Shown here piece after piece: positions 6,014-63,136 of a stretch of 64,000 nucleotides of DNA. A model generated the notes under the pieces. It had not been told where the DNA came from. It saw only the letters and a list, made by a program, of their open reading frames with translations, and made no database searches. The stretch is taken from NCBI GenBank assembly GCA_051362555.1, contig CM120642.1, positions 18,476,001-18,540,000 on the forward strand. Reading direction: 5' to 3'. Each line of letters begins with the position of its first letter. Position 1 is the first letter of the stretch. A program made the position numbers and the translations under genes. The stretch is from Lingula anatina. Taxonomy: Eukaryota; Animalia; Brachiopoda.

Positions 6014-7398
6014 TTACAAGCTCAGATAAAGTTGACCAAGATGGGTAAGCTTTCCGCTGTTGTCAAGGATGCTGGTGGACGAACCAAGGAAGTGACCTTG
6101 GGCATGCTCAAGCCGACTCTCGAACCAGGCATATCGGAAGATGAAGGACGACTTCTCAAGCATGGGCACCGCTGCGCGCATGAAGGACATAATCGGAGCG
6201 ACATTATTGTTTGTGTTGGGGCAGGCGAATTCTGTCAACCATATTGGCTTCTTCACCTGGTTGTGCACGGCGGTCAAGAACCCCATGAGGGAATTGGCGT
6301 TGCAGGTGTAGGAATGGGTGGCCACGTAATCTATACGGCAGCCGAGCTGTTTGCACTTGGCAAAGAACCGGGAGAACCACTCGTTGTACTGCATGCTGCA
6401 TTGGCCCGTCTTGGGATTACAGGGGGCAGCAGCCGGGCTGACCAGTTTGACGCTAGAGGGCACTTGCTTCTGGATTTCCATCCATTTTTCAGCGGCAGTC
6501 TCCGGCATGATGTTAGACTGGGCGTGAAAGTTTGGCTCGTTGAAGCCTGAAGGAGTAAACATGACAAATAAATAAGACCGATAATAAACATTACTAAGTA
6601 ATAAATTAAAATCTAATAGGAAATGACAATCGAAACGATCGAAACTATCATTCTCACGCTGCCTTTACACGGCGCTGTTGACCCCTGACCCGTGGCGCCA
6701 TGTTCTGATGAATAAAGCGGACACCTCATAGTATATTCGAATGAGTGATTGGATAAATAAATGAATCACCTATTTGCACGATATGATAAACAGGTCTATG
6801 ATAAATTGTAAGGTCATTGTGTGATTTTTAGCACATTCTTCTCAAGAATATCATGTGCATGTAATCCACCAAAATAATATCAATGGAAAAAAATCTTACC
6901 TAACAAGTACTTCTCTCCGTGAATTGATGTAATGGAGTTCATGGACCCAAGGCCCCAGATCATTGGGACGTACTCAATGTTCGGGTGGCACTGGTTCTTG
7001 CCGGTGGCTTTCCAATCATACCTGTAGAATACGCGACGAGTTGTGTAAAAGATTGCTTCAAAAATGTACAATAGTGACCACAAAATCCACCACTTTTACC
7101 AACACGGAATGGACAGTTTTATAAGATACAAAGTGCCCAGATTTTTCAAGTGCCAAAACTGTGAACAGTGAGAGCCTCAAGGACTTTTATACCCTGAGCA
7201 TTGTGAACTTGTCAGTGACTTTATGATTTAACCAAATACATCCAAAGATTCACTTTTAACGCTGTTCTTGATAAAAAATATTTTAAATGTCTTTCAAAAT
7301 GTATTTTAGAAATTGCTTTAATGTTTGATATGTTTTTCTTACAATTACTATTTTACTATAATCAAATATTTACCATCCCACTTTTATGTGCAAATAAA

Positions 7399-12237: not shown

Positions 12238-15200
12238 TCATTCCAACAAAGAACACTCTATCTTGTGCCAATCATGGTCTTTAGTAGGTCGCCTACTTGG
12301 AACATAAACCTGAAGCTCTTTGGGGATTGAGGGCTCTCCTTGCCCCTTGGTTTCTCTCACAATAGGTATCACATACGAAGCCTTTCTTGTCAGTCCCTCA
12401 TAAACAGCCTGATGTAGCTCGTATTGCCAGTTAGAGTCCCCTACAGCTTCGTGGGATATCACTACAATGGTCTTCATGCTGTTTGCCATTCCTGCTGTAA
12501 TATTTTCCAACACCTTACTCCCAGGAAGAAAATCCCTGTCGCGGAGACACCCTCTGAACTTCAGGGATACTTCCAGCGTTGTGAGCAGATGGTAACAGAC
12601 CCAGTCTCGGTCGCCGTCAGCATACACTACGTAGAAGTCATTCTCAAGTTCGGCGTTTCTTGCCTGTGCGGGTTGGTCGGGTATGCTGTAGCTGATTTCG
12701 GCAGGGACAGTGATTGAATCACAGACTGAGAGCTCATTTGTGAGAAGGGCGGTGGATTGCTGTGGATCATTTCTTCTAGTAACAGCTAAATTGCAGAAAA
12801 AATGTTAGTATAGAATCTTAAATCCCTGACTGGTTCAAGGTCATACAAATAAAGGTCATGAATGCCCTGTATAAAATTTGGAGGGCAAAAGTAATAATTA
12901 TAATAATAATAATATCATCAAATAAAATATTTAAGTATTATGATAAAGAAAATTAATCTCAAATAGAATAAAGATGTAAATCATCCTGCATATTGTTATC
13001 TGGTCTACAATCATTTAAGAATGATTTACCTCGTTCGGTTTCCTGGTTGACACCGATATATTGACTTGGTGTAATCTTTGCTTCCATAGCAACGGACTGC
13101 AAAGTTTGCATTTTATAGGCTCTCTTTGTTTCATCGACCAGATCTCTATCATCATCTCCCGATTCACGGGGTTTTATAGGGTTTGAAGTGCCTAAGGAAC
13201 TTGGCTTTTGTTCTTCTGTCGGTTTCGCTGCCCCCTTCTCACTCTGTAATAATAGGGTGCTATACTATGAGACTCACTGGTAAAATCTTACAGAACATTA
13301 CCATTAAACAGGATCTCAACTGATAATATTTGAAAGACTTCAAGAGAAGAATTATAAAAAACATAAACAAAATTCAAACTGCAATGTTGTATGTCTTACC
13401 TCTAAGGGAATTTTTCTCAGATGTATAACTAAGATAAATAAATAAAGACAAAGACTACATTAAAAAAATATTTCCTTAATAAAATTCGCATTGAAAGAAA
13501 AATTACCTTTTCTGAGAGGCTGTTTTTCGTCAAATCCAGAAAATCTTTTAAATTCTCCAATTTTTCGACATCTGAGAGCTCTTCTTGCGCGGTGACGTCT
13601 GCCAGGAAAGTCTTAAGTACTTCCGTCAAAAATATAGCTGCATTTCTCTCCATCCCTCTCTCACTCTTCATCAATTCTCCAACGAGACTTTTCAAAACCG
13701 TCGGACTGGTTGGATTTCCGGAGAAAGGATCCCAAAGCAATGTTACCTCCTTTTGCAAGTTTGTTAGTTTAAATTTTGAATAAGCTGTGATAAAACAATA
13801 CTTCAATTCACCTAAGTATTTCTTCCCTTTCTTGCCGTCTCGCTCTTGTACGCATGCTTCATATTTATCCATCAGCAAGTTAACCAACTGTACAAAACTG
13901 AAAAGAAATGTGCTGTTGGCTTGTTGGGTATAGACGGCGTTCTTGAAACTTTCAATTGCGCTTCGATCCTGACCAAGATCTTGAAGACATTTTCCTCTTC
14001 TTTGATGTATATCCGGGCACTTCTCACCCTCCATGTGTTCCACGGCATATTTGAACTGAAAGAGAGATTTTCTCATCATCTTCTCATTGACGACTCGACG
14101 GTTAATATCTATGCCGAGAAAGTGGTACATCTCGGCCAGATTTGCAAAATCGGTTGGAGTCGGGTTAAGACAGACGGCCATTTTGATTTTCTTCTTTGCC
14201 TTTTGTGCCAGCGCCCAATTCAAAACTTCCCCTCTTCTGCCTTCGTTGCTTTTCTCGGCCTGATACCACTGGTTTTTGTACAACAGTCGCAGATTATCCC
14301 CCATGGACTTGAAGGCATACCAGTTGCTTTCCGATGAGTCCAATTCAATGGACTTTTTGTGAAGTTGTTCCGCTTTCTCTCTGCTTTTCTCGTCGCCCTT
14401 TCTCCACAGAAAGTAAGCATATCGGTTCAAAATGTCGGTTCTGTTTGGGGTAAGCTCATTCGCGAGTCTGTAACACTTTTCAGCGTGAGCAAGACATTCT
14501 TCTGGGGAAGCAAAATTTTCTTTATGAACACCGTGGATATGAAGCTCTTTCACAACTGCAGGAACTTTGATAGGGAGTGAACTGTGGTCCGAAGAACTTG
14601 GTTCGCCCATCGGGCTCGCTTCTTCTTTCAAATCTTTCAAAACATTCTCAGATAGTCTCCTTTCCCAGAAACTTTCCAAGAAATCCACGAAATGATTTTG
14701 TTCTGTCTCGTTGTCGGAGTGTCGTTGACTTTGACCTGCATCATGTGATCTTTGTGAAGGTTTTATGTCATACCTATATTTGTTTTTTCTTCCTTTGAGT
14801 AACGCAAAATATTTCCCTCCCAGAACCTTTCCCAGCTGCATCCACGCTTGAGCTTGATAATTGGTATCTGCGATACAAGTGACAGCAAAGAAGAATTTGA
14901 CGATTAACGAAAACGCTATTTCATAATCTATCCCTAACTGAGATCGCGCAATTGGATGTCTACTTATATGTCCTAGATTGCAAGCGATGTCTTTGCACCA
15001 TTCTAAAACTTCACTGTACTCAAAAGCCTCAAAGTTGTCATCCACAATCTTGAGAGCCGTCATGTAAAATTTTTGAGCGCGGATGTTGGCTTGCCCGCTC
15101 ACGTCTTGTCTGGCCTCGACGAACACGTCGTAAGCCAGCATATAGCCTTGCTCGAACAGGCATCTTGCCCGGCTGGTCACCTTTGGCTTACACTCTTCGA

Positions 15201-15491
15201 GCCGTTTTGCGTACTTCCCTGCCTCGCTGGAAAACAAAACCTCGCTGAAGATGAACCCCAAATTGGCTAGGGCATTGAGATTCTCGGCATCAATATCTAG
15301 GACCTCTTCAAATGTTTTCACGCTCTTTTCTATGGCGCCGTCCTGGTACTCGAATACACCCTTTAGGTTCAGCATGACACTTCTGTGGGCCCCGGTCTGC
15401 AACAGCCGCATGTAGTTGTGGATGCTCTTCTTGTATTTCAAGTGTTGCTTGTTGGTCTTTGGGTTGACTTTGAGGTTCAGAATATGAAACC
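12238..15491 (-). CDS. TTC22: TTC22-like TPR protein fused to a C-terminal TIR domain (about 915 aa in resolved exons; first coding exon unresolved)
   Basis: Exons 15491-13507, 13243-13030, 12785-12238 join in frame with GT-AG sites. ENLNALANL, ARCLFEQGYMLAYDV, ILNRYA, SNWYAF and PDIHQRRGKCL match motifs recalled from vertebrate TTC22. Last exon: DFYVVYADGDRDWV...CLRDRDFLPG...KTIVVIS...SNWQYEL...VIPIV = TIR domain. Confidence 0.82.
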
Positions 15492-16978
15492 CTGCCAAGA
15501 AAAAATTATGAGATAAAACAATAGTTTTTTCAGGTCACAAATATAATCCCCAGACTAGTTATGTTTCCTTGGGTTTTCTTAAAGCGACTTAACGTAAAGC
15601 TGACACGAACCATGGAATTGCGGATTGTGTTTTGGGCTTTATAAAAAGTATTATTTCATTAATATAAAAAGTTTCATATCACTTGTAATAAAGTAGCACA
15701 ATACGTAATACATAATATCCACGAGAAAATTATATGAATGATGTAAAAAAAAAAAAGATGAAACAAATAGATAAATAATACGACTGCATTTCGAACTCAG
15801 AGACAGTGAATACTTTAATTCATTATGTAGTTTTGTGCGAGACTTATAGGCACTTGCTGGCCCAGACATATGCATATACGCTCTTTGCTAAAAAGTTTGT
15901 GCCATCTTTAGTCCTATGTGCTTTTGTTTACAAATGATCAGATGACAGCTTTTAACTGTTTTAAATAGTGGTTGTAATATGTTATTGTTTAGTGCTTTTG
16001 ATGTGGTAAAATGACATTACGAAGCTGATGTTATTTTACATGACTGCACATCTTAACTAGTAAAAAAGAATGCGGATAATCTATTTTTAAAAATTACATA
16101 ATGAGGAAAAATTCAAAGCAGGCCGACCATGTTGAGACAAGAGATCATTATACAATATTCTTTATCCTATTAATATATATTTATATATATATCTGATAGT
16201 TTAGAGTCAGCCTCTATAACTCACTGAATATACAACCACAAGTAGGATGTGCTTCATGGGTACTGGGTACTGACTTAATCTTATAAATTCTCTGCCCTGC
16301 ATTTTAACGCAAATGTGTTAGAGAAGCTGGACCAAATAAGTAATTGTGTTGAAGTGATAATACTATGAAGTATCTTAACATACGTCCTATTGATATTACA
16401 GCCAATCCTGCCAGAAAATCGTTCACTGATTATCGTTGTTTTTTTTTTCCTGGTTGGAATCAATATTCAAGGTGCGATAGAAAAAGAAAAAAACAATGAA
16501 AAAGAATGTTTAGACAGAGGGATGTCGATGCTTTTGCAGGTAGGGCCAGGTATGTGGATTTAGAACTTACTGGTATAGCAAGTAATGGAAGTACGATCAA
16601 ATGTTTAAGGACATCGGGAAATTCCGCTTATTGCGTCTTTTGGCGTTAACATCCCGGTTAGTGTCAAAGACGCAGAGAGCAGGAGTGGAAAATTTAACAT
16701 GATATACATACTGTTTATTCAGTCAACAGTATAGGCTTCCGAATTCCTAAAAATGAAAAAAACTTAGCCAGTAGGATTGACTCACTTTTGTTTGTGCAAA
16801 TAACTGTTACAGAAAGGGACGCAACAACTGAACGCGGCTGAACTCAAGAAGTCACTTGTACAGAGTGTTAACAGTGGAATGACCGATATTAAGAGATTTT
16901 AAAGACCAATGACCCTGGCGAAGGAGGGGGGGGGGGGGTTCACACCGTATCTCTCTTTTTCCGCCATTGATAAACTAA

Positions 16979-17178
16979 GGGTGCTTTCTTAGAGATTTAG
17001 ATCGACCTAACTCCCTGGGGGTCACGCTAAATTGCAGTCAGCCGAGCGGACACCATAGTTAATTACTCCCTTACAGCGTTTAGTAGGCGGGACAGACGTT
17101 TAAGCCGGCCAAGCTGACAGTAATCTAGTGAGACTCCCCACAGGGATAGATCGATCTAAAAATCTATCGAAATGGGGT
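16979..17178. mobile_element. Palindromic MITE family A copy
   Basis: TAGATCGACCTAACTCCCTGGGGG...GTGAGACTCCCC...GATAGATCGATCTAAA; close match to 34472-34682 (same orientation) and 33231-33435 (inverted). Confidence 0.75.
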
Positions 17179-19747
17179 GTAAAACAGGCTCGTAGGCAGG
17201 AAGAAGGTCGGCGGCGCGGGGGGGGGGGGGGGGGGGGATTTAAGAAAAGCTGCCAGAATAAGTCCACTATAAATAAAAAATTGACCTAGAATCAATGCCA
17301 TTTCTCAGGTTGAGTAAGTAGATAACGAGGATAAAAGTTCAGGTCCACACTTTCAGAAAAGACTCCCCCTCTCCCGAACTTTGAAATTACTGGTTATAGG
17401 AATGTAAGGTTGTATTACCATTAGACGTACTTGTGTATATGACAGCCAGTCCGGGGCTGAGGCCTACAGTTGGGCCAATGCAGTTACTGTCAAGTGCCAT
17501 AAACTCGATCCATTTATAACCTGCACATACCGACTTAAGAATAATTTGTTAGTTTGATGATTATGTGATTTTGGTATTGCGTAAGCAGGAGTCGTCATAT
17601 TCTAGCTGTGGTGTTGATGGTGGGAAAACACATAATCATTAAAGGTGGGGAAAGTAGAGCGCCTCTATACACTCTGAAGCGATATTTATTGACCATCATT
17701 AAATGACGTAAGCCCTCAATTCCAAGTCTTTTATTTCAACTAAGCGTCATCATTAATCTTCAACATGTGAAGGGTAACAGGAGCCTCAGCTTTGATCTTT
17801 GAAATACTTAACATCAAAGTTCAAAAGATAAGAATCCTGATTCAGCTAACTGTCTCAGGTTAACAGTTTCATTTTCGATGTGACCTAAATATAACGCAAA
17901 TTGCTCTATATGGCGACTCACTATTCATATTGTATTAATTGCATGGATCAACTACATGTCTAGCCTGGAATTTATATTGTTGCTTGCGTTGCCCATGTGG
18001 TATTTCTGTGACATTTGATGCTAACTTGGGCTTGTTCAGTGGTTTATTAGTCGTCCAGCCAATGTTTGTGAATTTCTTTCATTCTCTGCTGAAGTAGAAA
18101 CAGTTCTTTGTAGGTGTACATTGTTCAGACAAGTAATTTATTCAATCTGAGTCGGGCTTGAGCGCGCGACACGTAATACGTGTCAATAGAAGTTTATAGC
18201 TCTTAATTTAAGTTAATCTCTTTTCTTATCTTATCTCCTTTAATTATAGTAAAGTCTCAATAAAGATGCAAGTCTGTCACGCAAAGTTAGGTATAAAATC
18301 AGGCTGCGACCTGGCAATAAACGAGTTTTGATTTTTGTAACTAAACAGTGGTGTTGCGTTACTCTTCTCTCCGGGCATAACCCAAGTCGGGAATCGCGTA
18401 CCGTACCTAGAATCTTTCAACGGTGGATTAGAGCCCCTAGCGTCTAGATTATACCCGCGGTATATCGAAGAACTTAGTACAACATGTACCATGCTTTTGC
18501 TGTATAGACAGGCCCGTAACTTGGGGGGGGGGGGGGGGCTGGGTTCGAAAGAACCCCCTACTTAGATGGGAAAAGGTCCCCTCTAGAAAAAAAATCTAGG
18601 TACGCGAAGGTTACATGGTAAAAGGACCACTTTTTCAGCAAAAGAACCCCCCCCCCACCCCATTGAAATTGCATACAGATTGCACGTCTAGAAAAAAAAT
18701 CTTATCTTTGTTTATTCCATTCATATTTGTGTTACACTTTGCGTGAATATAGCTTCCAGCGGTCCATTAATGTTAACTACATGTGATACGTTACTAACCT
18801 GGTTCAATTTCTTCCATTTTGCAGTTTTACTTGGAAACAACTGGTAGATAAACCTCTTCTGGAAAGAAGAGTTAAAACGTACAAGAAAACGCAGAATTTT
18901 ATTCACTGAACGATTATTCGACGTACGAGTGGTTCGTCGCTAAATGTACGATAAAATGTAGACATGCTATCTGGCACAACATGTTTCTCATAGACTCGCA
19001 AATGCACCAAATATGCATATTTACCATTACCCACGCGTGTGCATATTCCTATGAAACCAATCACAATACTTAATACTTCCTCTAGCTTACCTTACTCGGT
19101 TTGGTTCTGTTATCTACCTGCATGCATAGCAGCTATGGAAGGCTTATATGGCATAAAGCAATGTCTGTTATTGGTCCACTTCCAATTGAAATAATCATCC
19201 AATAGATGGCGATACCAGTTGCTATTAAATTTTGTCCCTAATCTATGTAATAAGTATAACTTTTCATAAATAAAAAATTTGAAAAATTTGACAAAGTGGA
19301 CACCAGAAAACGAATAAAATTAATTGCAAAAAGTTTATAATCACAAAGTGTACATTTAAGCCGACATAATTTAATCTAATTTCGATCGGTTTTTGCAATG
19401 GGACATATAGCCAGTAAAGCCCTTATGTCCAAATGTGTCAGTGACACTAAAGCTGGGATGAATTTGTGTTTGCGAAAAATACACGCATTTATCTCCACAT
19501 ATTACATTAAGTGTTGTTTGTTTTTTAAGTCACCGATGACGTAATGAAACACAATTTTTCATGCAGGCAGACCTCAATACAGAAAACGTGCTCCACGTTA
19601 TTACCGTAGTACGTGCGTGTCAGACAGTCGACTGGACTGTAGCCGTAGCTGTAGAACGGAGCCAGTGTAGTGCAGGAATTCCTTGTCTGAGTGGTGCAAG
19701 TGTACATACCGTCAGACTAATATACGTAAAGCGTATATAGAGAGATA

Positions 19748-23861: not shown

Positions 23862-25385
23862 AATAAAGGGAACCGGAGAAGATCAGCATTGGTCAGAATT
23901 GTGCCGGAAGTGACGTGCAGTGGTGTTAGAAACGAAGCTGAGTGGTCATTTTAACATAGAGGTGAACGGCAGTGAAGACGGGTTGTCGGAGGAAAAAGAA
24001 GTTTTCTAAACAACATGGTAAGATAACACTTTTTCTTTACGCATTTTGGGCAGAGAAAACTTGTAGAAATAATAAATGCATGATATGAAAACGTGACACG
24101 GAACTTGAAGGTGCAAAATCGTGCTTAATTGACGGTCAACTTGTTTTAAAATGAATGCTGCATCGACCGCCATTGCGACAAAGAGTGTAAATGGAAAATA
24201 ATTCCCGGGAGGCTGTAAATCGTTGCCATGTGGAAATTTGGCATTAATATAATCCGATATGTCCATATCTAAGTATTTTTGGGGTGTATGAGCTGCAATT
24301 AGAACGAAGTTTTAGAGGTCTTGAAGGACCTTGTGAAAACAAGGAAGTAGTTCGTAACTAACAAGTGAAATGTACCGATCTCCGACTGCTGTGCACAGCT
24401 GTATCTTTTTTCAATATATTGACGAATTTTTGTCACAGGACAAATAAAACATTTCACTGACAAGATCTTCCCAAAAAGACAAAAAGAGAATTAAGGTGAG
24501 CTGACAGGTAATTAAGACTAGCTCAAAGTACTAATAATTGACATTATTATGCAATACTCAGTTGGTAAAACGATTCTCACAGGTAGATAACATGTAACAT
24601 GACCAATTTCTATAGGCTAATGATTGCCAGCCTGAGGAAATTGATTGCCAGTCTCTTTTGTCAGTGATTTTTAACTCAGATAAGAGGCTGTCAGAATGTC
24701 ACCTTTGTCTTGGCATTTGTCACTGATTAGCGCCTTCCCCAGTGTAAAAGGTATATCAGTGTGATCATGTGTGTGGAATTTCATGCCAGATGGACATATA
24801 AAGATCTAAAAGTTCGTCAATATATTGAAAAAAAGATACAGCTGTGCACAGCAGTCGGAGATCGGTACATTCCACTTGTTAGTTACGAACTACTTCCTGG
24901 TTTTCACAAGGTCCTTCAAGACCTCTAAAACATCGTTGTAATTGCAGCCCATACCATAAAACACCCAAAAATACTTAGATATGGACATATCGGATTATAT
25001 TTATGCCAAATTTCCACATGACAACGATTTATAGACTCCCGGGAATTATTTCCCCTTTACGCTTTTTGTCGCGCTGGCGGTCGACGCAGCATTTATTTCT
25101 AAACAAGTTGACCGCAAATTAAGCACGATTTTGCACCTTCAAGTTCCGTGTCACGTTTTCATATCATGCATTCATTATTTCTACAAGTTTTCTCTGCCCA
25201 AAATGCGAAAAAAAAGAGAGTTATCTTACCATGTTGTTTAGAAAACTTCTTTTTCCTCCGACAACCCGTCTTCACTGCCGTTCACCTCTATGTTAAAATG
25301 ACCACTCAGCTTCGTTTCTAACACCACTGCACGTCACTTCCGGCACAATTCTGACCAATGCTGATCTTCTCCGGTTCCCTTTATT
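23862..25385. mobile_element. Foldback element with about 570-bp inverted arms and about 380-bp spacer
   Basis: 23862-24430 is the reverse complement of about 24808-25385 (AATAAAGGGAACCGGAGAAGATCAGC ... GCTGATCTTCTCCGGTTCCCTTTATT) with scattered mismatches; no transposase; no clean direct TSD. Confidence 0.88.
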
Positions 25386-25686: not shown

Positions 25687-28600
25687 ATGGAAAAGAACAG
25701 CCAGCCGAGTGATATCACACGGATAGGAGTCACCGTATTTCTGGTGGCATTAATATGTGCTAGTCTCTTCGCTTTGAAGTCCACAACTCGAACGATCCAG
25801 TGGAAGTATACATCACCGCAATCAAATCCAAGTGAGTTTAAGTGATCATCTGGGGGGTGGGGGTGGGGGGCACAAGAATAAGAGAGGCTTCGCTTCACCG
25901 TGCGAAATCTCGTATTAAATTTATTGGCATTATTTTTATCATTATCATTTTTATTTTAATTTTTTAAAAATATTATTATTACTGTTGCTATTATTATTAT
26001 TATGACATTTCGTATGTATACTATATTGTTGTATTGTACGGTGAAAAAAACTATCACGGTGAAAAAACTATCACTATCACTTGAATAATATAAAACAACA
26101 GAGTAGGATAGCTATTCATGGCTTACTTGCGCCAAATGTTATCATTTTGATGTTAAAAGAGCAAATTTTAGTCTCAAAATGCAGTTAATAATGTAATTAT
26201 AAAGTAAATAAATATTTTGAATGTAATGTAAAAATTACTAAATGATTTAATATGAAAAGGATTTATGAGCCTTATAAATTATTATTTAGATGATTTTTGA
26301 ATACTTTCTTTTCAAATGTGATTACATTTGACAGAATACTTCATGTAAATGGTGTCAAAAGATAACACGTTTTTATTTGATTATAATAAAACAACAAAGT
26401 TAGCACTTTCCTCTCACCGTGAAATACAGATTGGTTGTTGTTGTTAATGGCGAGTATGAAGAGAGAACAGAAAAAATCAAGAGGGCGTTGCTCCAACATC
26501 ATGCGGTGTCGTCACTTGTTAAGTTGAAGGGCAGTTTGGTGTATTACCGGACGTCGCCCTCATACATGGAGACATCTAGGTTCCACCGTGCGTTCAGTTG
26601 GTAAACTAAGGCTATGAATGAGAACAGCCAGGCGAGTGTTATCGCCCGGATAGGAGCCACCGTATTTCTGGTTACATTAATATGTGCTGGTCTCTTCACT
26701 TTGAAGTCCACAACTCGAACGATCCAATGGACGTATACATCAAAGCCGGTTGGCGCGGGGTTCGGGGCCCGCTGAAGGGACTCGAAAATTGTTGATACTT
26801 TAAAGGGCGAACGGTGCCATTTGGTACGGTTTAGAACTATAATGTTACTAGTCAAAACTCTAACTTTAAGAGGGGAACATTGGTGTGATTTTTTTCAGAA
26901 ACCGAAGGGGGGTCAAGACCCCCTGGCTGCCCCTCAAACGTGCGCTAGATTTTGAGCTAATAATAAATAACAAAATGATTTTTAAATAATAAAAATACTT
27001 ATGCTTTGACAATTTCGAGTCTCTACTTCTTATCTGTTTTTCTTGAGCAAAAATGTTCATTAGCTTTGTAGTTGGATCATAAATGATAATTAACAAACAC
27101 AAGCGGAAAAAACTTTCATACCGTTAGCTTACGAGCAACCTGGACGTAAGTTTATCAGACTGATGTGAGCAGATGTTGCCACTCACTGACCGCTGGATCT
27201 TTTTTTTTTCTTCTAGATGTCATTGCCAAACAAGTGATTCTTTTAACTCATGACAGATTTGGATCGTCCTGGTTGGGGAGCTCCTGAATTACAACCCTAA
27301 TGCCTTATACTACTTTGAACCTCTACACGCTCTTAACGGAGATATCGAAAGAAGGAGACAGCTCCTATACACATCAGAGAAAACAGAGTGAGCAGTTACC
27401 GATAGCCCCCTGTTTCCCAAAGAACAGATGTCAAATTTGAGCTGTAAACATAGCGACCTCATTTTTTCACTGGATAAGTCTATAGTGTTTCTGCAGAAGT
27501 GGGTGGATAATGACTTTTCTTTGTCTCTTTTTTTTTTTAATTTTAGGGTGAAGAGGAATGATGAATTCCTTGGTAGCTAAGATGGGGTTAGGGGTGGGTT
27601 CGTCATTGTCTTGTGTTCAAATTCAAATATGGCCGTTGTTCTTTTGTGAAACAGACCAAATTTAGTAAATCATTTTAGTAAAATTGTACTTGTGCCATTA
27701 TGTCATGATGTGCATTTCTGCTAGTTAGTTTATTTTTCTTGTGTTTTAAATACATTTTTGCCGCTTTACAGGTTAGGTTGTGTAACATTTTAAAAATGTG
27801 CTTAATTTTCTGTCTCACTTTTTATTTCGTAATGTCTGGATTAATGGTATAAAAATTATCTGTAGAACTCTATAAATTTGTCTATAAAACCCTATGCTTA
27901 CTTTTCATTTGAGTATCAGTCGGCTTATTTGTTCGTTCGTTTAATAATCAAACAAAAAAAAAAAAACAATATAAAACAATTAAACATTCTATGTACATTT
28001 TTACAGACAAGCACCGTTTCCAAAAGAATCGAGAGTTTCAATACGGATAACAGAAAATTTCTTGAACTGCCACTTCGAGAATGTCCCTCTCTCCGTGCTC
28101 GCTCCTGGCGGACTAAAACACAATTGGTTTACTACAGGAGGACGTCACCGCCAGATGACGAGATTTAAGTCATGTATTTTATCCGAAAACGACGACCGGA
28201 CATGCATACCGCTGTTAACATCTGCGTGCCGCAATGCCAGCATCGTGTCATTTAAAACCATCCGAATGACCTTACGGATGACAGCAGGCATGTTGGAGAG
28301 AAACCCGGCTCTGAAAATCCTGTACTTAATACGTGACCCTAGAGGTAATTTGATTTAACCAAGTGTTCTGTTATATATATATATTTCATTACTTATTTAT
28401 CAGACTTTTTGTATATACAGACCACGAACTTATTTTTTGCTGAATATTTTGTTCAAAGTAATTAATTTTGTTGTGGTGAAACAAAAAACTAATCGTCAAA
28501 TCCTACTCGTAATATTTGTATCAAATTCAATGGCATGCATCAGACCCTTTTAAATTTTCTTTGTAGCTACGATGCTTTCGGCATGGAAAACATTTGAAAA

Positions 28601-29045
28601 GCTGAGGACCGAAACAATATCACCCGTTGGGATAAATTTGTTAATTTTTATACGGGAATACTGCAACAACGTAGGGGATAACGCCAACTTGTATCGAGAA
28701 CTGGAAACTAAGTTCCCTGGAAGAATTCTTGTCATACGTTACGAGGATGCCATTAAAGATCCCGTGCGAAAGGCAGAAGAGGTGTATCAGTTTCTAGGAC
28801 ATCGTATGCCTTCAGAAGTAAGAGATTTCGTACGGGATAGCGCCTCAGCGAAAGAAGACAACGGGGTTTTTGGTACGTCACGTACGGATCCCGCTCAGAC
28901 GGCGTACAAGTGGGTTCCCACCATCCCGTTGAAACTTGTGGAACTCGTTGAGGACGCGTGCTCCCATGGGATGAGGCATTTCAACTACACGCCATATGAC
29001 AAACTTAGGAGCAAATATGATGAAATTCTATCTCAACTTGAATGA
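25687..29045 (+). CDS. Golgi type II carbohydrate sulfotransferase (CHST/Gal-GlcNAc-6-O-ST-like), about 377 aa if a 1-bp frameshift at 27275-27278 is repaired; possible pseudogene
   Basis: Exons 25687-25831 (MEKNSQPSDITRIGVTVFLVALICASLFALK, membrane anchor), 27217-27387 (5'PSB-like HDRFGSSWLG, YYFEPL), 28007-28344 (KTIR, LIRDPR), 28567-29045 (ATMLS, VIRYED). Sum is 1133 nt, one short of a multiple of 3; as written TTG GGG AGC TCC TGA terminates in exon 2. Confidence 0.78.
26614..26745 (+). pseudogene. Duplicate of the sulfotransferase first (TM) exon, truncated by a repeat
   Basis: MNENSQASVIARIGATVFLVTLICAGLFTLKSTTRTIQWTYTS parallels 25687-25815; the GTGAGT donor is replaced by repeat sequence. 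Confidence 0.75.
26745..26946 (-). mobile_element. Partial inverted copy of the MITE at 38619-38935
   Basis: CCATTTGGTACGGTTTAGAACTATAA...AGAGGGGAA...GGGGGGTCAAGACCCCC is the reverse complement of about 38630-38820. Confidence 0.7.
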
Positions 29046-35664: not shown

Positions 35665-36377
35665 GTAAGTGTTTTCTTTTTCAATCAGTTTAATAATAAT
35701 TTTAGACTAAATCTGTGTCTCTAAAATTATGTTATTTGTAACGAAAAAAATGTAAATTGTATATTATTTTTCACGAAAAAATGTACATATTTTAAACGGA
35801 ATATTTATACTTTAAGATGCGTTGAATTCGAATATATAAGGCATTTAGTTTCTCAGTTATTATGAGAAGTTACTGAATGAAGACGTACATAAACAATATA
35901 CGTTCATCCTTTTCTAAGATATTGCAATTGAGTAAATTAAAAATTCAATTCGCGACAGAAATGGTGTAAACTTAAAAAATTGTGCACTTAAATAAACTTG
36001 GAAACTGTGAAGTGAAAAAAATCAAAAGCATGCTGTGAAACAAAATAACATTAGGAAATAAACCAGATGCAGCGTGACAAGGTAAACTATCCAGAACAAA
36101 AGTGCCTCGAAATGTTACAGCAAGTAATGTTTAGTAAATAGTTTTTTCTGGTTTTCTCGAATGAACGATGTCTGGAACTTGTATCAGTTTCATGACCTTG
36201 AAGTGCCTTGTTAGCATAAAGTAGAACCTTTAAAAATAGCAAATACACTCAACTTCTCTTTTTTCTCGTCTGTCGATAGCATTTCTAGTGTTTGATTTAT
36301 TGGGTATAAAGGTTTGCCACAAAGCTACTTCAAGGACTACCTTTTAAAATATATAAAATATTTTTTATTTCTCCCAG

Positions 36378-38249
36378 ATGTACGGTAGGCGCGGAGATCA
36401 CTTTCTTGTCGGCGAATTCGGTGGCTACGAATTTGGGGATTTCGGAGGAGGAGGCGATAATGATGTAAAAGACCCATCTGGAATCACCACTACAGGAAGC
36501 GTGACCAGCGATACACCCACGACTTCCGCCACTAGCATCTTCTCGCCATCAGCGGCATATACAGGAAATCCGCAAGCAGTGACGAGGTCGAGATTATCTG
36601 ACATTCTGACCCAAGTTGTCACGGGTCGTCCAGATACTGTCCCAGTTCATTCCACAATCAATAAAAACATTTTACAGTCAGAGAGACCAGATTCTTACGA
36701 TATTTTCAGCACTGCGGCGAGGACAGGAAATATAGATACCACTACCTCAACAACAACGGGATCGGATAAACCCATCACTGATGTCTTTACCAGGACATAC
36801 GAACTCATTTCTAGCCATACTACAGACTTAGTCACACATTTAAACACTTCAGTCACAGCGCACAGTGGCAGCCAAGCACAAACACCAGAGAGAAATTTTA
36901 CTTCTCATACAAACATATTTGAACTTTTCAATTCAACAAATATTTCATGGTCAGAGCTACCTGAAACGGATTTTCGCATGTGTCTAGGATGTACACATAT
37001 CATTCATGACATTGTTCTTCCTGTCGTCATAGCTATTGGAATTCTAGGAAACGCAGCAGCGTTTTTGGTTTTGATGAGGAGAATATTCCGGTTGTCTGCT
37101 ACAGCGCGTCTCCTGATTGGTCTAACAGCGTCTGCTTTCTTGCATTGTGTCATTGAAGTTCCTCATCTTCTGTGCAGTGATAAAAGTCTGTATGCTTCGG
37201 AAGGTTTCCAGGTTTTCTACAGGCATTATCTCATCGCAAGGTATGTGTTTATCGCCGCACTGACGAGTGTTTAAATACATTTTATTATGATATTTGTTTT
37301 CATTTTATTAAATTACCTAATTGTACAGAAATAAGTACTGGTCAGTTTTAATATTTCCGTTAGTTTGTAAATTTTAATTTATACATTTGCGGTTTTGATA
37401 AAAATACGTCTTTTTATGCGCTGCACTTATCATAAAAATATAACTACTTAATTGCTGACTACTTACGCTCATCCTTATTCTTCCATTTTCAGGAATGCAT
37501 TGAACCCAATCTTGCTGTCAGCTGTCACCTGTCTGACTGTCGCTGTCGTCTTGGAAAGGTTCCTGTCTCTTCGTTACCCCTTTTCTCCGTCCATGCACTC
37601 TACCGTCCCAGAAGCCAGTAAGACAATTCTTGGGGTATTTGTGGCCGTCACGCTGTTCCATTTGTCTAAGTGCTTTGAGTACGCACCAAACCCTGATCTG
37701 TCGTCTGCGGAACCCCTGATTGCGACAGAGCTGCTTCGGATTGCAGCTTACAAGATATTCCGCCAGTACGTCAACACGACTCTCACGGTCACCCTTCCAT
37801 ACGTCGTTTTGTTTGTGCTATTAGTATTGTTGGTCATCGCCATTTCAAACTTTAGATCTCAGTGTAAAAAATCATTCATAGGACAATCGTCTACCGGAGA
37901 TGCGAGTCACATGACGTCAGGGGTGGTTGCTATGGCAACCATGTTTCTACTGTGTAATTCTCTCAGCTTGTATTTAGCTACAAATATCACAGTTTATGGC
38001 AGCGAAAAGACATTTTCAAGCAGCCTGAATGTTGAACTGAAAGAATTATCTGAAGTTATGATATTTGTTTACATGTCGCTCCCGTTTATCTTGTTTTGCG
38101 CCATCTGTCGGAACTTTAGAAAAGCTACCTGCTGCTGTGGGTCCAGTAATTCAGTGGGATTTTCTACCGACGTCTCCCAGAAAAATTCCCGATCAAACAG
38201 TACATTCACTGGTATTGGGGTGTCGAATTGTAGTCTAGATTTTGTGTGA
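36378..38249 (+). CDS. Class A (rhodopsin-like) GPCR, FMRFamide-receptor-like, with long Ser/Thr-rich N-terminus, 539 aa
   Basis: Exons 36378-37240 and 37493-38249 join in phase 2 (1620 nt). Seven hydrophobic segments; TM1 GILGN, TM3 LERFLSLRYP, TM5 TLPYVVL, TM6 MFLLCN, helix 8 CRNFRK. Confidence 0.85.
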
Positions 38250-42594: not shown

Positions 42595-44187
42595 TCATAT
42601 CAAAATATAAATGCCTATGGGAAGAACTGTCCATGTGAATAGCACGTTAACACCAGTATTATAAAGGACTGATACGTTAACAGCTTTAACGCTTTGCCAT
42701 TCCGTCCAATGACCACGATGATGTAAACACACTGACCTATGACTGACCAGTAGTGGACCATACCCCGGCCACGGTTCAAACCCTGTCCCTATCCGCCAAT
42801 ATAGAACATTACTCAAGTACAGCCTTGACAAGTCCAAACATTTATATCTGGCGCGGCAGCTATTTGTTAACGTCGCCATGACAACGTGGCCTCGTGCTCC
42901 TCTATGAGAAGGGAAAGCTATGTATTCCAGTACGCCATATGTCAGTATGCTGAAAGCGTGGGCGGTTATATTGACAACTTCGCCATCCTCTGCCTCCCAC
43001 ATACCTGAATATTGATCCGCAAAGGTACCAAATCTGGTTATTTTATTGAACGTATTGTTGCAGTGCCCACAATGCTTGAGGCAACGGTGCCCGGCAGGAC
43101 CTATCGGGCCCATATCACAGACAGATTTATCATCACATTGTCTATCGTCTTTGCAAGCTGTTGTTTGAATGGTCATTTGTTTGGCCAAATGCAACGAAAC
43201 AAATAGAGGGTTCATTTTTTGGTCGCCTGTTGAATACGTCGGGTCGAAAAGAGCACCTTTTATCAGAAGAGCTGGGAAGTTGTTGTCCGCGTTTGACGTG
43301 AACCTTAATGTCAAGACGTTTTTATTGATATTGGTTTGTATAAGTATAAAAATGAACCTCCCTGTATTCAAATAACCTAAGCACGTCCCTAACACTGTGC
43401 TGCAGTAAGGATGGTAAACCACATCGCTCAGTTGGCAAACTTCTTCCCTAAAATCCAACGCAACTGGTTCGCCTGGTAGGCAGCCTGCTTCCAGGATAAG
43501 AGATTCACATTCTTTTACACGATAGGCGACGCTTTCCCCATATACCGTCTTCCTGAACATGGTACTGAGAACACTCGCGAAGGACATCAAGTAAGCTCCG
43601 TCAAGGGGACATTTGACCTCGTATTGCCTCATCTCCTTCCAGGTTTCGAAGTGTCGAACCAAAGGCCACGTGACAGTCTGAAGACGCTCGTCGTCACAAA
43701 TGTCATTTCCCGGGTGACCTTTTAGAAAATGCCTGGATGATATTCTCAATTGTATCACACCCATACTTATATTAATGAACTGGAAACAACTGTAGGCAGA
43801 CATGTTCAGTGTATTTATATATTCACTAAGAATATACTTCTGCCCGTCTACGTCGGTGGCGTTTTCCTCCCCGGTCACTTGGCTGTTGCATGTTAAAATA
43901 TAAGGGGTAATCTCTTCTGTACTATTGACCATATTTGTCGGACGAATCGATTCTCCTGTCATTGCAGTTTCATTAAAAATTACCTCGGTTCCTGGACTTG
44001 GAGCGCCGTATTGGGATGTGGTGGTAGAGCTACTAGGTATATCCCCTGTCACGAATCCTGCATGCCATCTTTTGGCCTCCCATACTGTACTGGGAAAAGA
44101 GCACCGCTTCACTACACTGGTTGTGTGCTTGCCAGTCGTTTGTAGAATTATCATGCTGAATAACCATGCCAATGAATTGCTTGGCAT
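42595..44187 (-). CDS. Intronless 530-aa Cys-rich secreted/GPI-type protein with an ShKT-like module
   Basis: Single long ORF; ATG at 44187 starts a hydrophobic leader (MPSNSLAWLFSMIILQ); hydrophobic C-terminus (VLFTWTVLPIGIYILI); CKDDRQC-DDKSVC-x11-CLKHCGHC fits ShKT spacing; repeated CSFP..W / CPLDGAY / F...YSGMW starts suggest three beta-rich modules. Confidence 0.75.
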   Translation of the reverse strand: MPSNSLAWLFSMIILQTTGKHTTSVVKRCSFPSTVWEAKRWHAGFVTGDIPSSSTTTSQYGAPSPGTEVIFNETAMTGESIRPTNMVNSTEEITPYILTCNSQVTGEENATDVDGQKYILSEYINTLNMSAYSCFQFINISMGVIQLRISSRHFLKGHPGNDICDDERLQTVTWPLVRHFETWKEMRQYEVKCPLDGAYLMSFASVLSTMFRKTVYGESVAYRVKECESLILEAGCLPGEPVALDFREEVCQLSDVVYHPYCSTVLGTCLGYLNTGRFIFILIQTNINKNVLTLRFTSNADNNFPALLIKGALFDPTYSTGDQKMNPLFVSLHLAKQMTIQTTACKDDRQCDDKSVCDMGPIGPAGHRCLKHCGHCNNTFNKITRFGTFADQYSGMWEAEDGEVVNITAHAFSILTYGVLEYIAFPSHRGARGHVVMATLTNSCRARYKCLDLSRLYLSNVLYWRIGTGFEPWPGYGPLLVSHRSVCLHHRGHWTEWQSVKAVNVSVLYNTGVNVLFTWTVLPIGIYILI

Positions 44188-44782
44188 TGCTCCGATATAC
44201 TTATTCCTTTCCAACAAAGAAAATGGATTTCAAATCGAAAGCCTTGTCAGCAACACATGAACATGATTAGTCCACGACAGAACAAACAGAGGTTAAAAGC
44301 ATCTGGATGATTTTTATTACATTTCTCAATACTTAACTTGCTGCAGGAATAAATGATTCAGGCGATCGTTCCCCTGGGTTTAATTAAGCCGCCGAACTAA
44401 ATTTATTTATAATGCATCAAAGTCTACTCGAAATATCTGGCGATTTCGTGTAAGGAGGGCATTACATGTACACATTCCTTTTCATCGATTGATACGTCAC
44501 AACCATCCTGGATTAACAATGAACAATCGGTAAACCACGTATATAACCAGTGCAACTACAGCTGATGCAGAAAGTCCCTTTACACTAGATTACGGCTTCG
44601 TTAACGCTGTATGCAGTTTGCAAAACTTTAACAGTAACGAATGGTACATGTTTTTAAATGCTTTTTTATAGTTTTTTAAACATCGCAAACTATTAATCAA
44701 TTTACAATAAAATTTTTTTCAATATTTCACAACCAAAAAGAGATTTCATTGAATTGTTTACATACTTCATAGCAATAATTAA

Positions 44783-57356: not shown

Positions 57357-59989
57357 GTGAAATGCCCTCTTCTAAATTAAAGTTAGGTCTCAGTCAGTGA
57401 TATAGAGGTACGCGTAATGTTAAGAAATGGCCTATAGCTTCCTGGTAATAACTACCGCATTGCACACATAATACACACTACGTTTTAGGACACTTCACCA
57501 AAACCACATTACTTTCTCCATTATAGACCGACCTGCGAAGGTGCTGATTACATTAGCATTGGATCCCTATATACATGAGAACTTGACATCAATGTACATT
57601 AGCCGGCTTTCCACTAATAATATGCAGAGTTATATCGTCCCTAAAGAAAAAAATATTCACAGATGATTTAATGAAACCGCAAATAAAAATGCTGCATAGC
57701 ATTACCTCTGTGCAGCATTTTGTGGTGGAGGATATTTATATAATTATGATAATTAAATGAGCTATTCTTGTCCCCACGCCTCCCAAAACTGCATTTGGAT
57801 ACATATATTCGTGTGAAGTCAAAGTTAATTCAAAACGACACGGTCGAAGTGAAGGTTCATATTTGTATTGTTTATAGCGATCCACGTGGAAAAAATTATG
57901 TAGGTTTCTCACAGCGTGCTGGCCATATGCATCTTATTTAGGTATTCAGCAGAGCGGAATGAGAAAAATAACACACTGGACTAAAAATCACAACTAGCAC
58001 ATCCCCCTCTAGAGGAAACGTCTAAAGTCGTGGTGCTCCTTCTGGTTAATGTATAAAATGCTGTATAAACTGTTCCTTATAATGAAAATTTGCCTATGAT
58101 ATGGCTATCACAAAGTGAAAACACTCATACATAATGTAATAGTGGCATTTTATGACTCACAGTGTTTATCCATTGAAAATCATCAACCAATGAAGGTAAA
58201 AAATGTAATAAAACTCATTTTTGAGTAACAAGTTTTCCCCATATTGATATCATACATTTGTCCCCTGACAAAAGGGCAAACATGTGTATAGTTAAAATTT
58301 GTTATTCATAACATATGTTTTTTCTTAGAGCCTACCGCTCCTTTTTTGAAAACGAGGCCAAATCTAATATTTTCCTAAATAACCGTCTGGTGGCTCCCGG
58401 GCTGCATGTATTTGTCCTTGGCCGAAAATGGAACATCTTCACCTTAAGGGATTTGCATTCGCCATTAATTATCTCACGCTCTAAACTATCCATAATTGCT
58501 TCTTTGCTGTTTTGACGTATAAATTTCATAATATTTAAATTTTAAAATAATTATTTAGCGGCATATGACGTGGAAAATGGGGAGTGTTTGGGTCTATTGT
58601 TGTCATATAAAATCTCTACATTCTACCTACCACGACTTTTAAAGTTACCACCCTTCTTTTCAGACGAATATCCTGAAAACCAAGATGGCTATCACTAAAA
58701 GTGGTTTTTGCATATTGATGTCCCGACATAAGGTTACATTTAACGCACCCAAATTGTATTCTGCATTATGCTGATGTGTCATCTTTTGAAATAATTGGGT
58801 CAATTAAATATAAGGGACGTCCAGAATTATAATGAAATCAATAACCATAAAATTAAATATATTAACCAGCTCAAGCTAAACTTTGAATGATAACCCATGA
58901 CTGGAATTAATGCTCATCGTTTACAGACGTGCGATTATTTAAAAAATGTACAAAGAATGCCGTTGAAAAAGGCAGCACTAGTAGCAACGAGTTATATTAA
59001 TAAAGAAAACGCTTAGAATCTTGCGATACACAACAGCCGTCTGTATTAAAGGGACAAAAGATAGGATCTGAAACGCTTTCTTAGTGCATGGATTGCTTCT
59101 TTTTGAACTTATCTGAGAACAATTGCTATATTTAAAACATAGAATGGCACATAAATGGCCTTAATCAATACCAATGTACTCATACAGCTTTATTAAAATT
59201 AAATATTCATACGTATCACCTAGGTAATTTCGATGAGGACAATGTCCACCTTTAACGATTTTGATGCATGGTGCATTTATTATTAAAGGTCCAAGCTTTT
59301 ATATATAGCTTGGTTGTCATTGACCTGGAGGCGCACTTTCTACCAGACACCCAAATCTGACTGAAGGAACTTCATTCAACATTGTGGCTGCTAGAACAAG
59401 TGAGTGTGAGTGTCAGAGCTGTTGCTATGACAACAAATGGGTTGAGTTGATTTTTAATGCAAATTAGCCGTGACTCTTTGTCAAATTATCAGTTCACTAT
59501 CAGTTCCACTTCAAAGTTTGACATTGGTAGACCAATAAAGTAGGATGTATATATTTAATTCGGATTAAAGGCAAACCAGTTCGACCTCCTAAGGTTTCCT
59601 TTTTTCGTTAAATTACCTTCTAATAGCGTATCGACTTTTGAGATAAATTTGCCGTATACCAGTCAATATCATCATAACGTGATATAATCTCAACAATACA
59701 GTTGCGTCTCCGGCAATACAATGCATAACAAAAGTTGAGAAAATGTTTACTCCTGGTGTTATTGGATATTCGTTTTCCGATGTAATTGGTCCACACGACC
59801 AATAACGTGATCCACTTTTTATACATGTATTTTGGCAGAGCTGCTTAATCAATGTTCTTTTTGTGCCCAAACTAGTCCGATACTTCGACATCGCCACTGG
59901 GGGTTGTGAAAGAGAGCCGTGAATGACAGCAAGGGATATAGATATTTTATTCTAATTTTCCTTACTGATATATGTTTATAAGCTACGCA

Positions 59990-60323
59990 ATGGGGTCGCG
60001 GATAAAAACATCCGTAGTTCTGCTTTGTTTGCTGTCCATTCTTTTATGTAGAGGACATTCATATACCTGGGGATATTTCAAAAGTTCCAACGGCTCAAGA
60101 CTTACAAATGGAGTTTTCAGTGGCGCACAACCAACGACGTACAGCGTGCGCGACAAAGCGCATTGCACCGTTCTCTGTCTTCATCTCGGCATAGCGAGCT
60201 GTACATCTGTCAACTACCATAGCAGTAGTAAAACGTGTGAGATTAATGATAGAACAAAATACGATGACGCTGGAACAGTGTCTGTAGCGGATGAAGACTG
60301 GGAACACCTGGATGCAGACTTAG
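59990..60323 (+). CDS. First coding exon: signal peptide + PAN/Apple domain
   Basis: MGSRIKTSVVLLCLLSILLCRG leader; C-x3-C...C-x-SVNY-x6-CEIN...W PAN pattern; G|GTGAG donor, phase 1. Confidence 0.75.
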
Positions 60324-60713
60324 GTGAGCTGATTTTTATCTGTCTCTTACATGTACGTGCGACTTGATGAATCTTTTACTTTGTTTGGACGGTCTTAGCA
60401 GATACATCGGTGCGTCTCCGCTTGTGTACGGTCTTCCACTTAATTACGGTGGTTTTTTTAACATGTATGACCATGGGAAAAAGGCTTTTATAGTGTTGGG
60501 GAAATATAAAAGTGACTTTTTAACAAGTGCCATATACAAGTTTCAGAATTAACATATAGACTTTGATTTCTTGTTTTTAACTTTGCATGCATTTTAGTTA
60601 TGTTTTAAATTTGTTTACATATGTCTTTTAATATTCCTTTATTCCTACTTACTAATGGTTTTATTAAACTATGATGCAATGATTGTAATTATCCAACCCT
60701 CGGGTTGCAAGTT

Positions 60714-60754: not shown

Positions 60755-63136
60755 GTCCTCCTCGGAACAACACACATACTACGGAGGGTGCTATCAATGA
60801 AGTAGAAAGGAACAACTAACCTCTAGCGCCTTAGGACCATTGTTTAGACCCGGTTCTTTAGGATGTAATAAACAACGCAGAAAGAAAACTAAATAATAGT
60901 AATAATACTAATAATGATCCAGTGTAAAGTCTTGGTAGAGTCCAATGCCAATTTTACTGTATCATACAGTTTACTTAAGTTCAGGCCCATGACTGGAATA
61001 TACAACATTGGTCAAAAAGGTTGTCCCACCCCCATTTCCATGTACTTTTATTTACAAATGATCACCTCACAGTTGTAAATTGTTAGAAATAGTGCTTTTT
61101 ATTACATATACCGTGTCTAACATGATTAATGGTTAAAAAAATACAAAATAGTGGTGAAAATATACACATGTTATACCATTTAGTAAATTTTATTAGATGT
61201 ACCCCCTCAAATCCACTGTTTCACTGTGACATCTACAGATGTAAAGAAATGTCAATTAAATTGAAAAGACGCCATCAAATGTCACCAAATTCACACACAA
61301 TTAGCATTAGGGTGTGCTCGTTAAAGATCACTTGCCTAACAGCATGTGCGTATACTGAAAAATCTATTCAAATTATTGTCGATCTAAAGGTATCCCATCC
61401 AGGATTTTCCCACCAAATAGATTATCACATGAAAAAAATGCTCTTATTACAAATCATTGCTCGACTCCTGCTATTGGATTTTACATCATTTTTGATAAAT
61501 GAGTTCTTACTATTTTGTAAAGGTTGAGACCATTATGTCTTCCAGTAAGTTTCGGCAGAAATATCGACATCAGGAAGTTTCATTGGAGGCGTTTCCTCGT
61601 TTTTTTGCTCTGAATAGAGAAAGATAAATAGCATTTGCCGGATACGCAGATAATGAAACCATCAGCTTGGGACAGTTTCAAAAGCGGAGTAGTCCTTTAT
61701 TTACCTAGTTGTCAAAAGGGTCCATGCATTTCAGTGATTCTTACAATTTATATGTCAAAATGCTCACCATGGCATGTTCAATTGTTTGCACATCACTCAG
61801 GTGAGCACTAGAATAATAATCGATTACTACCAACTGCGCTACAACATGGTTAGTTTTACACAAACTCTAACCGGGTTATACGTAGCTGAACCTTTAGTAC
61901 TAACAAAGGGAGGCTACTGTACCTATGCGTCAGCCTCATGTACAGATGTATACGTAGAAACATACATTGTAACGTCAGCGGTGTCAAACATTTTCCCCAA
62001 CTAATTTTTTAAAAAGTCTAAGTGAATGTTTAGTCTGTCTTTTTCATATCGATCACGCATTTGCTTGGTTTTCGTAACATTAGCTTTGCGTGATTACCAC
62101 AATTTTACGTTCTGATTTGTCATTCGCCCATTCAACATGCCCTCTTTTGTCTCCAATTAAAAAGTCTAAAATCTACTTTTGTCTTCCCTGTCTGAAAAGC
62201 TACGGAGCACTTAACATTCTGAATTCAGACATTGAAAGACTTTATGTTTAAAAAATGCCCGCCCTCAACTTAAAGTTCCTGGTGTTTACATATCCTTCTG
62301 CAAAATTACTTATGGCTGTCTACATTACTGGATAGTTACACATTACTATAGTACCTAATTAGAAATGGTACAAAATATCGAGCTCCAGTTTACGGATGGG
62401 TCGAACAATGATTCGTGAGTAAGAAATTTTTTTATTTCCTATTTAGGTATGATATCTTTAATGACTACTTAACAGCTCTTTATAAAGGGTCGGAAACAAA
62501 CCCTCTGTTGATTGAGGATTGTTTGGGTTATACATACAAGCCTCTAACTGCATGTGATATTACATGTAGCCATTAAAAGCAATTTTTAAGCAATTTGATA
62601 ATCCTGTAACGCTTGATGTGAGATCAATATTAACATGCTTAAGAGCAATTTAAATAGTTAGAGGGAATCGGGAGTACGAACTTAACAAAAATATACCATG
62701 GGTTATTTGTGTAATTATGCCATCGATTTTTTCTACCGATGTAAGTATCACTCTCAAGAAGGTTAACTTAATCATACTATTATTTTTACAAAGTGCTCTG
62801 TACGATTGAAAATCGATAAATAAAAAATTCGATTATACGGCAGTCTTTTGTGCCTTTCATTCCGGCCAAGCAATGCTGCTTTCATTAGAAGGAGACCCTT
62901 TTTCGATTGCAGGTCAGTTAATTGTAAAGGATAAGTCGGGTAAATTGCATTTACTTACTAAAACGCTTTAGACAAAGAAATGATTTTGTTAAACAAATGT
63001 TTTCCATGAGTGGTACGGGTGTGTATAGCTTACAACTTTCTAGTGAATAAGGAGGGTGCCTTCTTGGCTTAAAAAAGCTCTCTGGAAACATCCCCATTGA
63101 GCTTGACAGTGTTTTAAAAGTTCCTTTTTGTTCTAG

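Follow-up and report, generated by a model that had tools for sequence, protein, structure and literature searches.

A TTC22-family tetratricopeptide-repeat array with a predicted IFIT-like fold is fused to a Toll-like-receptor-type TIR domain in Lingula anatina

Does a minus-strand gene of the brachiopod Lingula anatina join a TTC22-like tetratricopeptide-repeat (TPR) array to a TIR domain in one protein and, if so, what might that protein do? The gene lies in a 64,000-nucleotide stretch of assembly GCA_051362555.1 (contig CM120642.1, positions 18,476,001 to 18,540,000), the whole of which was analyzed and is called the window here; coordinates are positions in it. A first-pass annotation, made from the sequence alone, had read the gene as a cytosolic sensor-effector immune receptor with an NADase-type glutamate in its TIR domain. 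We found that the gene is real and intact and that the fusion is encoded as one protein. By collinear homology over the whole array, the TPR region belongs to the TTC22 family, and its predicted fold resembles that of IFIT proteins, whereas the TIR domain, judged by its matches, is of the Toll-like receptor (TLR) and IL-1R type. We put at roughly one half the probability that the product is a cytosolic immune receptor whose TTC22-family, IFIT-like clamp probably takes up a ligand and brings scaffold-forming TIR domains together.

Two long open frames lie on the minus strand in the list of open reading frames of the window (15534-13429 and 12804-12238). A protein search with the first frame returned the NCBI protein LOC106153060 (P0001, 924 residues) at 100% identity, and the N-terminal peptide of this record has its sole position in the six frames of the window at 18817. 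Four coding exons, in minus-strand order 18817-18799, 15491-13507, 13243-13030, and 12785-12238, give an open joined frame of 921 codons plus one stop, separated by three GT-AG introns of phases 1, 0, and 1. The first-pass annotation had the coordinates of three of these exons right but had missed the first coding exon of 19 nucleotides (nt), which lies upstream of the TPR exon by a 3,307-nt intron. The spliced product equals the NCBI protein except for a 3-residue insertion in the NCBI record (residues 260 to 262, near window position 14715) that falls in a variable insert; the window and the record are therefore different alleles or assemblies. The 921-residue protein consists of the TPR array, then a linker, then the C-terminal TIR domain, and its features are the following.

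18799..18817, minus strand: coding exon 1, from the ATG (six codons and one further nt), which encodes the N-terminus of P0001; GT donor, phase 1; reads in 3 of 4 RNA runs
15492..18798, minus strand: intron 1, 3,307 nt, GT-AG
13507..15491, minus strand: single exon for the entire TTC22-like TPR array, predicted IFIT-like fold, residues 7 to 668 (Pfam, hhalign, structure model)
14422..14427, minus strand: codons of N362-R363, invariant in the three Lingula paralogs and lizard TTC22
14320..14325, minus strand: codons of N396-W397, invariant in the same four proteins
13030..13243, minus strand: linker exon, polar, predicted disordered
12238..12785, minus strand: last exon, with the linker end, the TIR domain, and the stop codon
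12241..12642, minus strand: TIR domain of the Toll-like-receptor type (Pfam TIR, E 9e-13; TLR15, E 7e-12)
12520..12537, minus strand: BB-loop motif RDFLPG (RDFxPG in all three paralogs)
12418..12420, minus strand: Glu862 (Y-E-L), codon GAG, aligned with the catalytic glutamate of TIRs (Y-E in all three paralogs)

Prediction could have joined what are really a TTC22-like gene and a small adjoining TIR gene, an artefact that we consider very improbable. RNA reads were aligned to the window from four of the nine listed runs (X1, X4, X7, and X9, chosen by species label), an alignment swamped by poly-G artefacts and by a repeat in intron 1. The TPR and TIR exons were covered at a depth of ~1 to 5 in three of the four runs and hardly at all in X1. 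In X4, nearly all first mates in the coding bins were plus-strand, as a minus-strand transcript would give in a standard stranded library. What favors the artefact is that the two linker-exon bins were near-empty (0.07 or nothing) in X7 and X9, the runs that best cover both ends, and that the 15 joint rows listed of 160, a list filled by poly-G artefacts, include no splice joint; a single transcript that joins TPR to TIR was therefore not observed. In contrast, both linker bins hold reads in X4 (depth, 0.55 and 0.25), the TIR exon is bounded by a splice acceptor and lacks a Met ahead of the TIR domain, the frame is open across both introns, and the same fusion recurs in two paralogs at other loci. 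Among the 40 read differences listed (189 more exist), 14 of 16 coding differences were synonymous (TPR exon, 11 of 13; TIR exon, 3 of 3) against a fraction of 0.21 expected under uniform change, an expectation that is rough in that it ignores transition bias, and the reads may come from another population or a close paralog. The TPR end and the TIR end are both under coding constraint.

The TTC22 likeness proposed for the array was borne out. When the Lingula profile was aligned by hhalign to lizard TTC22 (P0004), the match had a probability of 99.85 (E 8e-31) over 440 columns at 28% identity; the profile of three Lingula proteins also retrieved a lizard TTC22 (E 7e-44), and single-sequence BLAST against lizard TTC22 gave two collinear blocks (E 4e-14 and 1e-12). 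TTC22 clusters came top in an Atlas search, both by features (0.96) and by structure. Eighty-nine columns, tail columns included, are invariant across the three Lingula proteins and lizard TTC22. The array is thus collinear with vertebrate TTC22 over its full length. Unlike lizard TTC22, which has 564 residues and no TIR among its Pfam matches (as the first-pass annotation held for vertebrate TTC22), the Lingula protein adds an insert, a linker, and the TIR domain. The insert, of ~90 residues at about residues 241 to 340, is not in TTC22 and varies among the paralogs (19 to 21% identity versus 41 to 48% in the flanking TPR core).

The predicted shape of the array points to a second family. A model of the TPR exon (mean predicted local distance difference test [pLDDT] of 73.4; predicted template modeling score [pTM] of 0.67) was built on an alignment of 7 rows from 4 distinct genes. 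When this model was searched with Foldseek, nine IFIT rows reached a TM(query) of 0.39 to 0.45, and the other 34 listed rows stayed at 0.30 or less. VIA-align, run on the top chains from Foldseek (954 aligned), placed IFIT5 first (Z 18.9; root mean square deviation, 5.6; 423 of 476 residues), aligned N-terminus to N-terminus with model residue 1 on IFIT residue 15, and among the 15 best rows, 11 were IFIT1 or IFIT5. The Atlas places IFIT clusters next after TTC22 (features, 0.94 to 0.95). The array is therefore predicted to match IFIT5 and IFIT1 end to end better than it matches other solved TPR proteins, and on this model the comparison with IFITs is stronger than the first-pass annotation had claimed. 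The likeness to IFIT5/IFIT1 (4hot, 4hor, 3zgq, 5w5h, 5udi, and 6c6k) lies in a predicted TPR clamp aligned from the N-terminus over 398 to 423 residues; they differ in that identity to the Lingula TPR region is 16 to 18% and IFITs have no TIR domain. IFIT genes also resemble the Lingula gene in that a very short initial coding exon precedes a single long one, although the first intron follows 19 coding nt here and ATG plus 2 nt in mammalian IFITs (PMC3688568). The same source reports IFITs from jawed vertebrates only and places their origin there (PMC3688568).

What kind of TIR domain does the array carry? Pfam TIR matched at 48.8 bits (cut-off, 21.3; E 9e-13), in line with the first-pass call. 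Among solved structures searched to E 10, the nearest relatives were TLR15 (E 7e-12), then TLR3, TLR1, and TLR2, and 39 of the 41 matches were TLR, IL-1R, Toll-related, or adaptor TIRs. The remainder consisted of TIR-STING 6wt6 (E 0.013) and a "TIR domain protein," 7uxr (E 0.19), which we take to be bacterial; no SARM1, plant, or ThsB TIR was named among the 41. The RDFxPG loop, the BB-loop motif, is present in all three paralogs and aligns to TLR15, TLR1, and TLR2. These matches, the loop, and a Y-E-L glutamate are what the domain shares with TLR TIRs, and on this basis it is assigned to the TLR/IL-1R type. It departs from them in that neither the W-C pair before Y-E nor the box-1 Ser is kept, the Ser being replaced by Val or Ile in the Lingula proteins.

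The glutamate that the first-pass annotation located in SNWQYEL is indeed encoded by GAG at 12420-12418, but it did not hold up as a mark of the NADase type. Glu862 occupies the same column as the glutamate of TLR15 (QYEL), TLR1 (HYEL), and TLR2 (KYEL). SARM1 and plant TIRs have a Trp four residues before the Glu, and this Trp also lies 4 residues ahead in TLR15, TLR1, and TLR2. It lies 3 residues ahead in the Lingula protein, which thus departs from the spacing of the enzymatic TIRs, 4 ahead in P0002, and is replaced by Met in P0003. Given that the domain is of the TLR type, that the inactive TLR2 has the same glutamate, and that the Trp is displaced, we rejected "NADase-type TIR" as a family label. 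The protein shares with SARM1, plant TNL, and bacterial ThsB proteins the logic of a sensor repeat joined to a TIR domain and a Glu in the catalytic column. Unlike in SARM1 and TNL proteins, no SAM or NB-ARC oligomerization domain is among its Pfam matches. It resembles metazoan TIR-STING (6wt6) as an invertebrate fusion of a sensor to a TLR-like TIR, with a weak TIR match, but the sensor there is STING and here a TPR clamp.

A family label does not settle output, and clustering might still turn the TIR domain into an NAD+-processing enzyme, with cyclic ADP-ribose (cADPR) as a messenger or, less likely, with depletion of NAD+. Hurieva et al. (bioRxiv 10.64898/2026.04.20.719644) screened 61 animal TIRs that bear the Glu and found 12 to be active, most of them in making cADPR; TLR4 and a cADPR-making Lingula TLR were among these, so that TLR-type TIRs can be enzymes. 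Enzyme output would also be consistent with Y-E in all three paralogs and with the weak match (E 0.013) to TIR-STING, since the oyster TIR-STING TIR is a suggested NAD+ depleter (bioRxiv 10.64898/2026.04.20.719644). However, 49 of the 61 gave none of the measured products, TLR2, IL-1R9, and IL-1R10 kept the Glu and were inactive, and depletion of NAD+ was the exception among active animal TIRs (bioRxiv 10.64898/2026.04.20.719644); TLR2 is among the nearest solved relatives here. Because 12 of 61 Glu-bearing TIRs were active and TLR2 was not, the Glu would allow but does not predict catalysis, at a base rate of about one in five in that screen. Together with the variable Trp and the Val or Ile at box 1, these points make enzyme output unlikely in our view.

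The proposed cytosolic location was consistent with the topology of the protein. No LRR family appears among the nine Pfam matches of the full protein, in accord with the first-pass annotation. Its further claim of no signal peptide or membrane helix stands for the helix, which was not inferred from hydropathy, paralogs, and the model, with no dedicated signal-peptide or membrane-helix predictor applied. The most hydrophobic 19-residue stretch, from residue 198, has a mean hydropathy of 1.85 (paralog peaks, 1.05 and 1.25); it was rejected as a membrane helix since the paralogs have no such peak and the model folds the stretch as a TPR helix. Membership among the Toll-like receptors was likewise rejected: there is no LRR among the Pfam matches, the hydropathy peak is not common to the paralogs, and, unlike those receptors, the protein lacks an LRR ectodomain and any inferred membrane helix. 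Disorder is predicted for the polar linker (pLDDT < 50), which has 22 to 26% identity to the paralogs; it is present as annotated, although it is not strictly of low complexity.

The fusion recurs within Lingula. A protein search recovered two paralogs (P0002 and P0003; 35 to 36% identity), both with TPR and TIR families. Among the paralogs, identity is 41 to 48% in the TPR core and 42 to 43% in the TIR domain versus 19 to 26% in the insert and linker. P0007, an alternative model of P0003, begins with 190 residues that by eye read like retroelement sequence, and this start is probably a gene-model fusion with a long interspersed nuclear element (LINE) piece. Besides Lingula proteins, three word-based protein searches brought up nothing but a single lizard TTC22 gene; since they also missed other vertebrate TTC22 proteins, they do not show the fusion to be restricted to Lingula. 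When the Atlas was queried with the full-length protein, the top cluster (0.98; 54 members of ~749 residues, mostly echinoderms) has TIR in 89 to 91% and TPR in 78%, and two mollusc clusters come next (0.96 and 0.95), for which TPR families only are shown. These clusters are leads that come without alignments, and their members may or may not be of the TTC22 type. None of 328 pattern matches in a metagenome scan was confirmed.

How might such a protein work as a cytosolic receptor, a layout that the fusion of a TTC22-like array to a TIR domain makes plausible, as the first-pass annotation had suggested? A ligand, which may be foreign or stress-altered RNA, a ribonucleoprotein (RNP), or a protein, would sit in the conserved groove and gather several molecules, and the long flexible linker would free their TIR domains to meet. 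The clustered TIRs would then build a BB-loop-dependent scaffold and recruit a MyD88-like TIR adaptor, as TLRs do but free of the membrane. TLR-type TIRs form scaffold assemblies (PMC8635717). The glutamate would have come down with a TLR-type TIR, and the main output probably lies elsewhere.

A number of results weigh against this receptor reading. The structure models were built on shallow alignments; the first, of the whole protein, had a pLDDT of 51 on 3 rows and left the TIR without a resolved fold. That weaker model gave generic TPR matches, with LGN above IFIT. For the 7-row TPR-exon model, IFIT ranked 14th by Foldseek E-value, and the OGT TPR domain (Z 18.1, 339 aligned) and designed TPRs tied with IFIT by Z, over fewer residues. 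No IFIT is included among the PDB sequence matches of the Lingula protein or of its profile, and lizard TTC22 alone reached IFIT5 weakly (E 0.0026), ranked below Ski3. The residues of the IFIT5 pocket for RNA 5' ends are T37, Q41, K150, R186, Y250, R253, Y254, R260, and Q288 (PMC9677429), and none of the seven that could be mapped is identical here, in a tentative alignment through two short phmmer stretches of lizard TTC22, the second not significant, with K150 and R186 unmapped. Ttc22 knockout mice have no overt phenotype (PMC13693868). To these are added the near-empty linker bins and the lack of listed splice joints given above. Nevertheless, in that same weak alignment, the family-invariant pairs N362-R363 and N396-W397 fall tentatively on IFIT5 R253/Y254 and H286/H287, respectively, both in the stretch that is not significant. 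Because the pocket residues differ and yet the invariant pairs land on pocket positions, the array is suggested to have a conserved groove with a chemistry other than that of IFITs.

Some of the same evidence would suit a protein that senses nothing foreign, in which the TPR region is a protein-binding scaffold and the TIR domain tethers it to TLR/MyD88 assemblies as an adaptor or brake that tunes or damps them. The absence of the IFIT RNA-pocket residues, as far as that tentative alignment goes, and the good conservation of the TPR core among the paralogs both fit this explanation; many pathogen sensors change fast, unlike the Lingula TPR core. Although the function of TTC22 is not clear, human TTC22 is described as a protein-interaction TPR protein that binds RPL4, and infection-related genes are raised in the knockout colon (PMC13693868). 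On the other side, the BB loop is intact, and an expanded receptor family would account for the three divergent paralogs and for the similar clusters seen in echinoderms and molluscs. We judge an adaptor or brake to be somewhat unlikely. The cytosolic receptor with a ligand-binding clamp and a scaffold TIR remains the reading that we favor.

A broader and doubtful proposal would make TTC22 and the IFITs sister branches of an ancestral cytosolic clamp-plus-TIR receptor, kept in Lingula, that sensed foreign RNA or RNP and signaled through its TIR domain, possibly by cADPR. If this were true, vertebrate TTC22 and the IFITs would be receptors that lost the TIR domain, IFIT-type sensing would predate interferon, and TTC22 would gain an immune role. 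No report of a TTC22-TIR fusion or of a TTC22-IFIT relationship was found among titles and the starts of abstracts; literature that pairs TTC22 with IFIT consists, by title, of expression or association studies. TPR and TTC22 go unmentioned in the available text of the animal TIR screen (bioRxiv 10.64898/2026.04.20.719644), and TPR as a term is absent from the available parts of PMC2575513 and PMC2858798. An Aplysia survey lists "TIR-TPR" as an abbreviation; TPR-plus-TIR proteins are therefore known as a category, and the domain pair is probably already known. The TTC22/IFIT link is the part that we did not find in print. As it stands, an intact, expressed, and constrained invertebrate gene ties TTC22 (by sequence) to IFIT (by predicted shape) and to a Toll-type TIR, and it suggests that animals possess a class of TIR receptors independent of the membrane.

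Intron 1 holds two matches to regulatory consensus patterns, and neither was used as evidence. An interferon-stimulated response element (ISRE)-type match at 17865-17876 is the only full one in the window and lies within chance (26 of 100 shuffles have one), as does a kB-type match at 16616-16625, one of two in the window where 3.2 are expected. At ~16980-17240, a repeat within the intron attracted hundreds of RNA reads with partial fits in all four runs, so that a related element appears to be abundant in transcripts elsewhere. No immune gene cluster is evident among the genes of the window. Two tandem minus-strand genes (456-1049 and 6014-6664) carry the Glyco_hydro_cc (PF11790) catalytic core (E 1e-39 and 4e-42), presumably of a beta-glucanase-like family and unusual-looking in an animal. 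Other neighbors, by Pfam, are a sulfotransferase (27984-29045), a Srw-like G-protein-coupled receptor (36357-38249), a DUF7043 protein (42595-44229), a PAN-domain exon (59969-60367), and a fibronectin-III exon (63118-63492). The segment 29186-30320 reads by eye like a LINE relic, of which a tested piece had no Pfam match. Upstream of the gene, a large inverted repeat at 23862-25385 has arms of 422 and 126 nt that are 95 to 96% complementary and flank a 417-nt spacer; it has the look of a foldback element or of one duplicated head to head.

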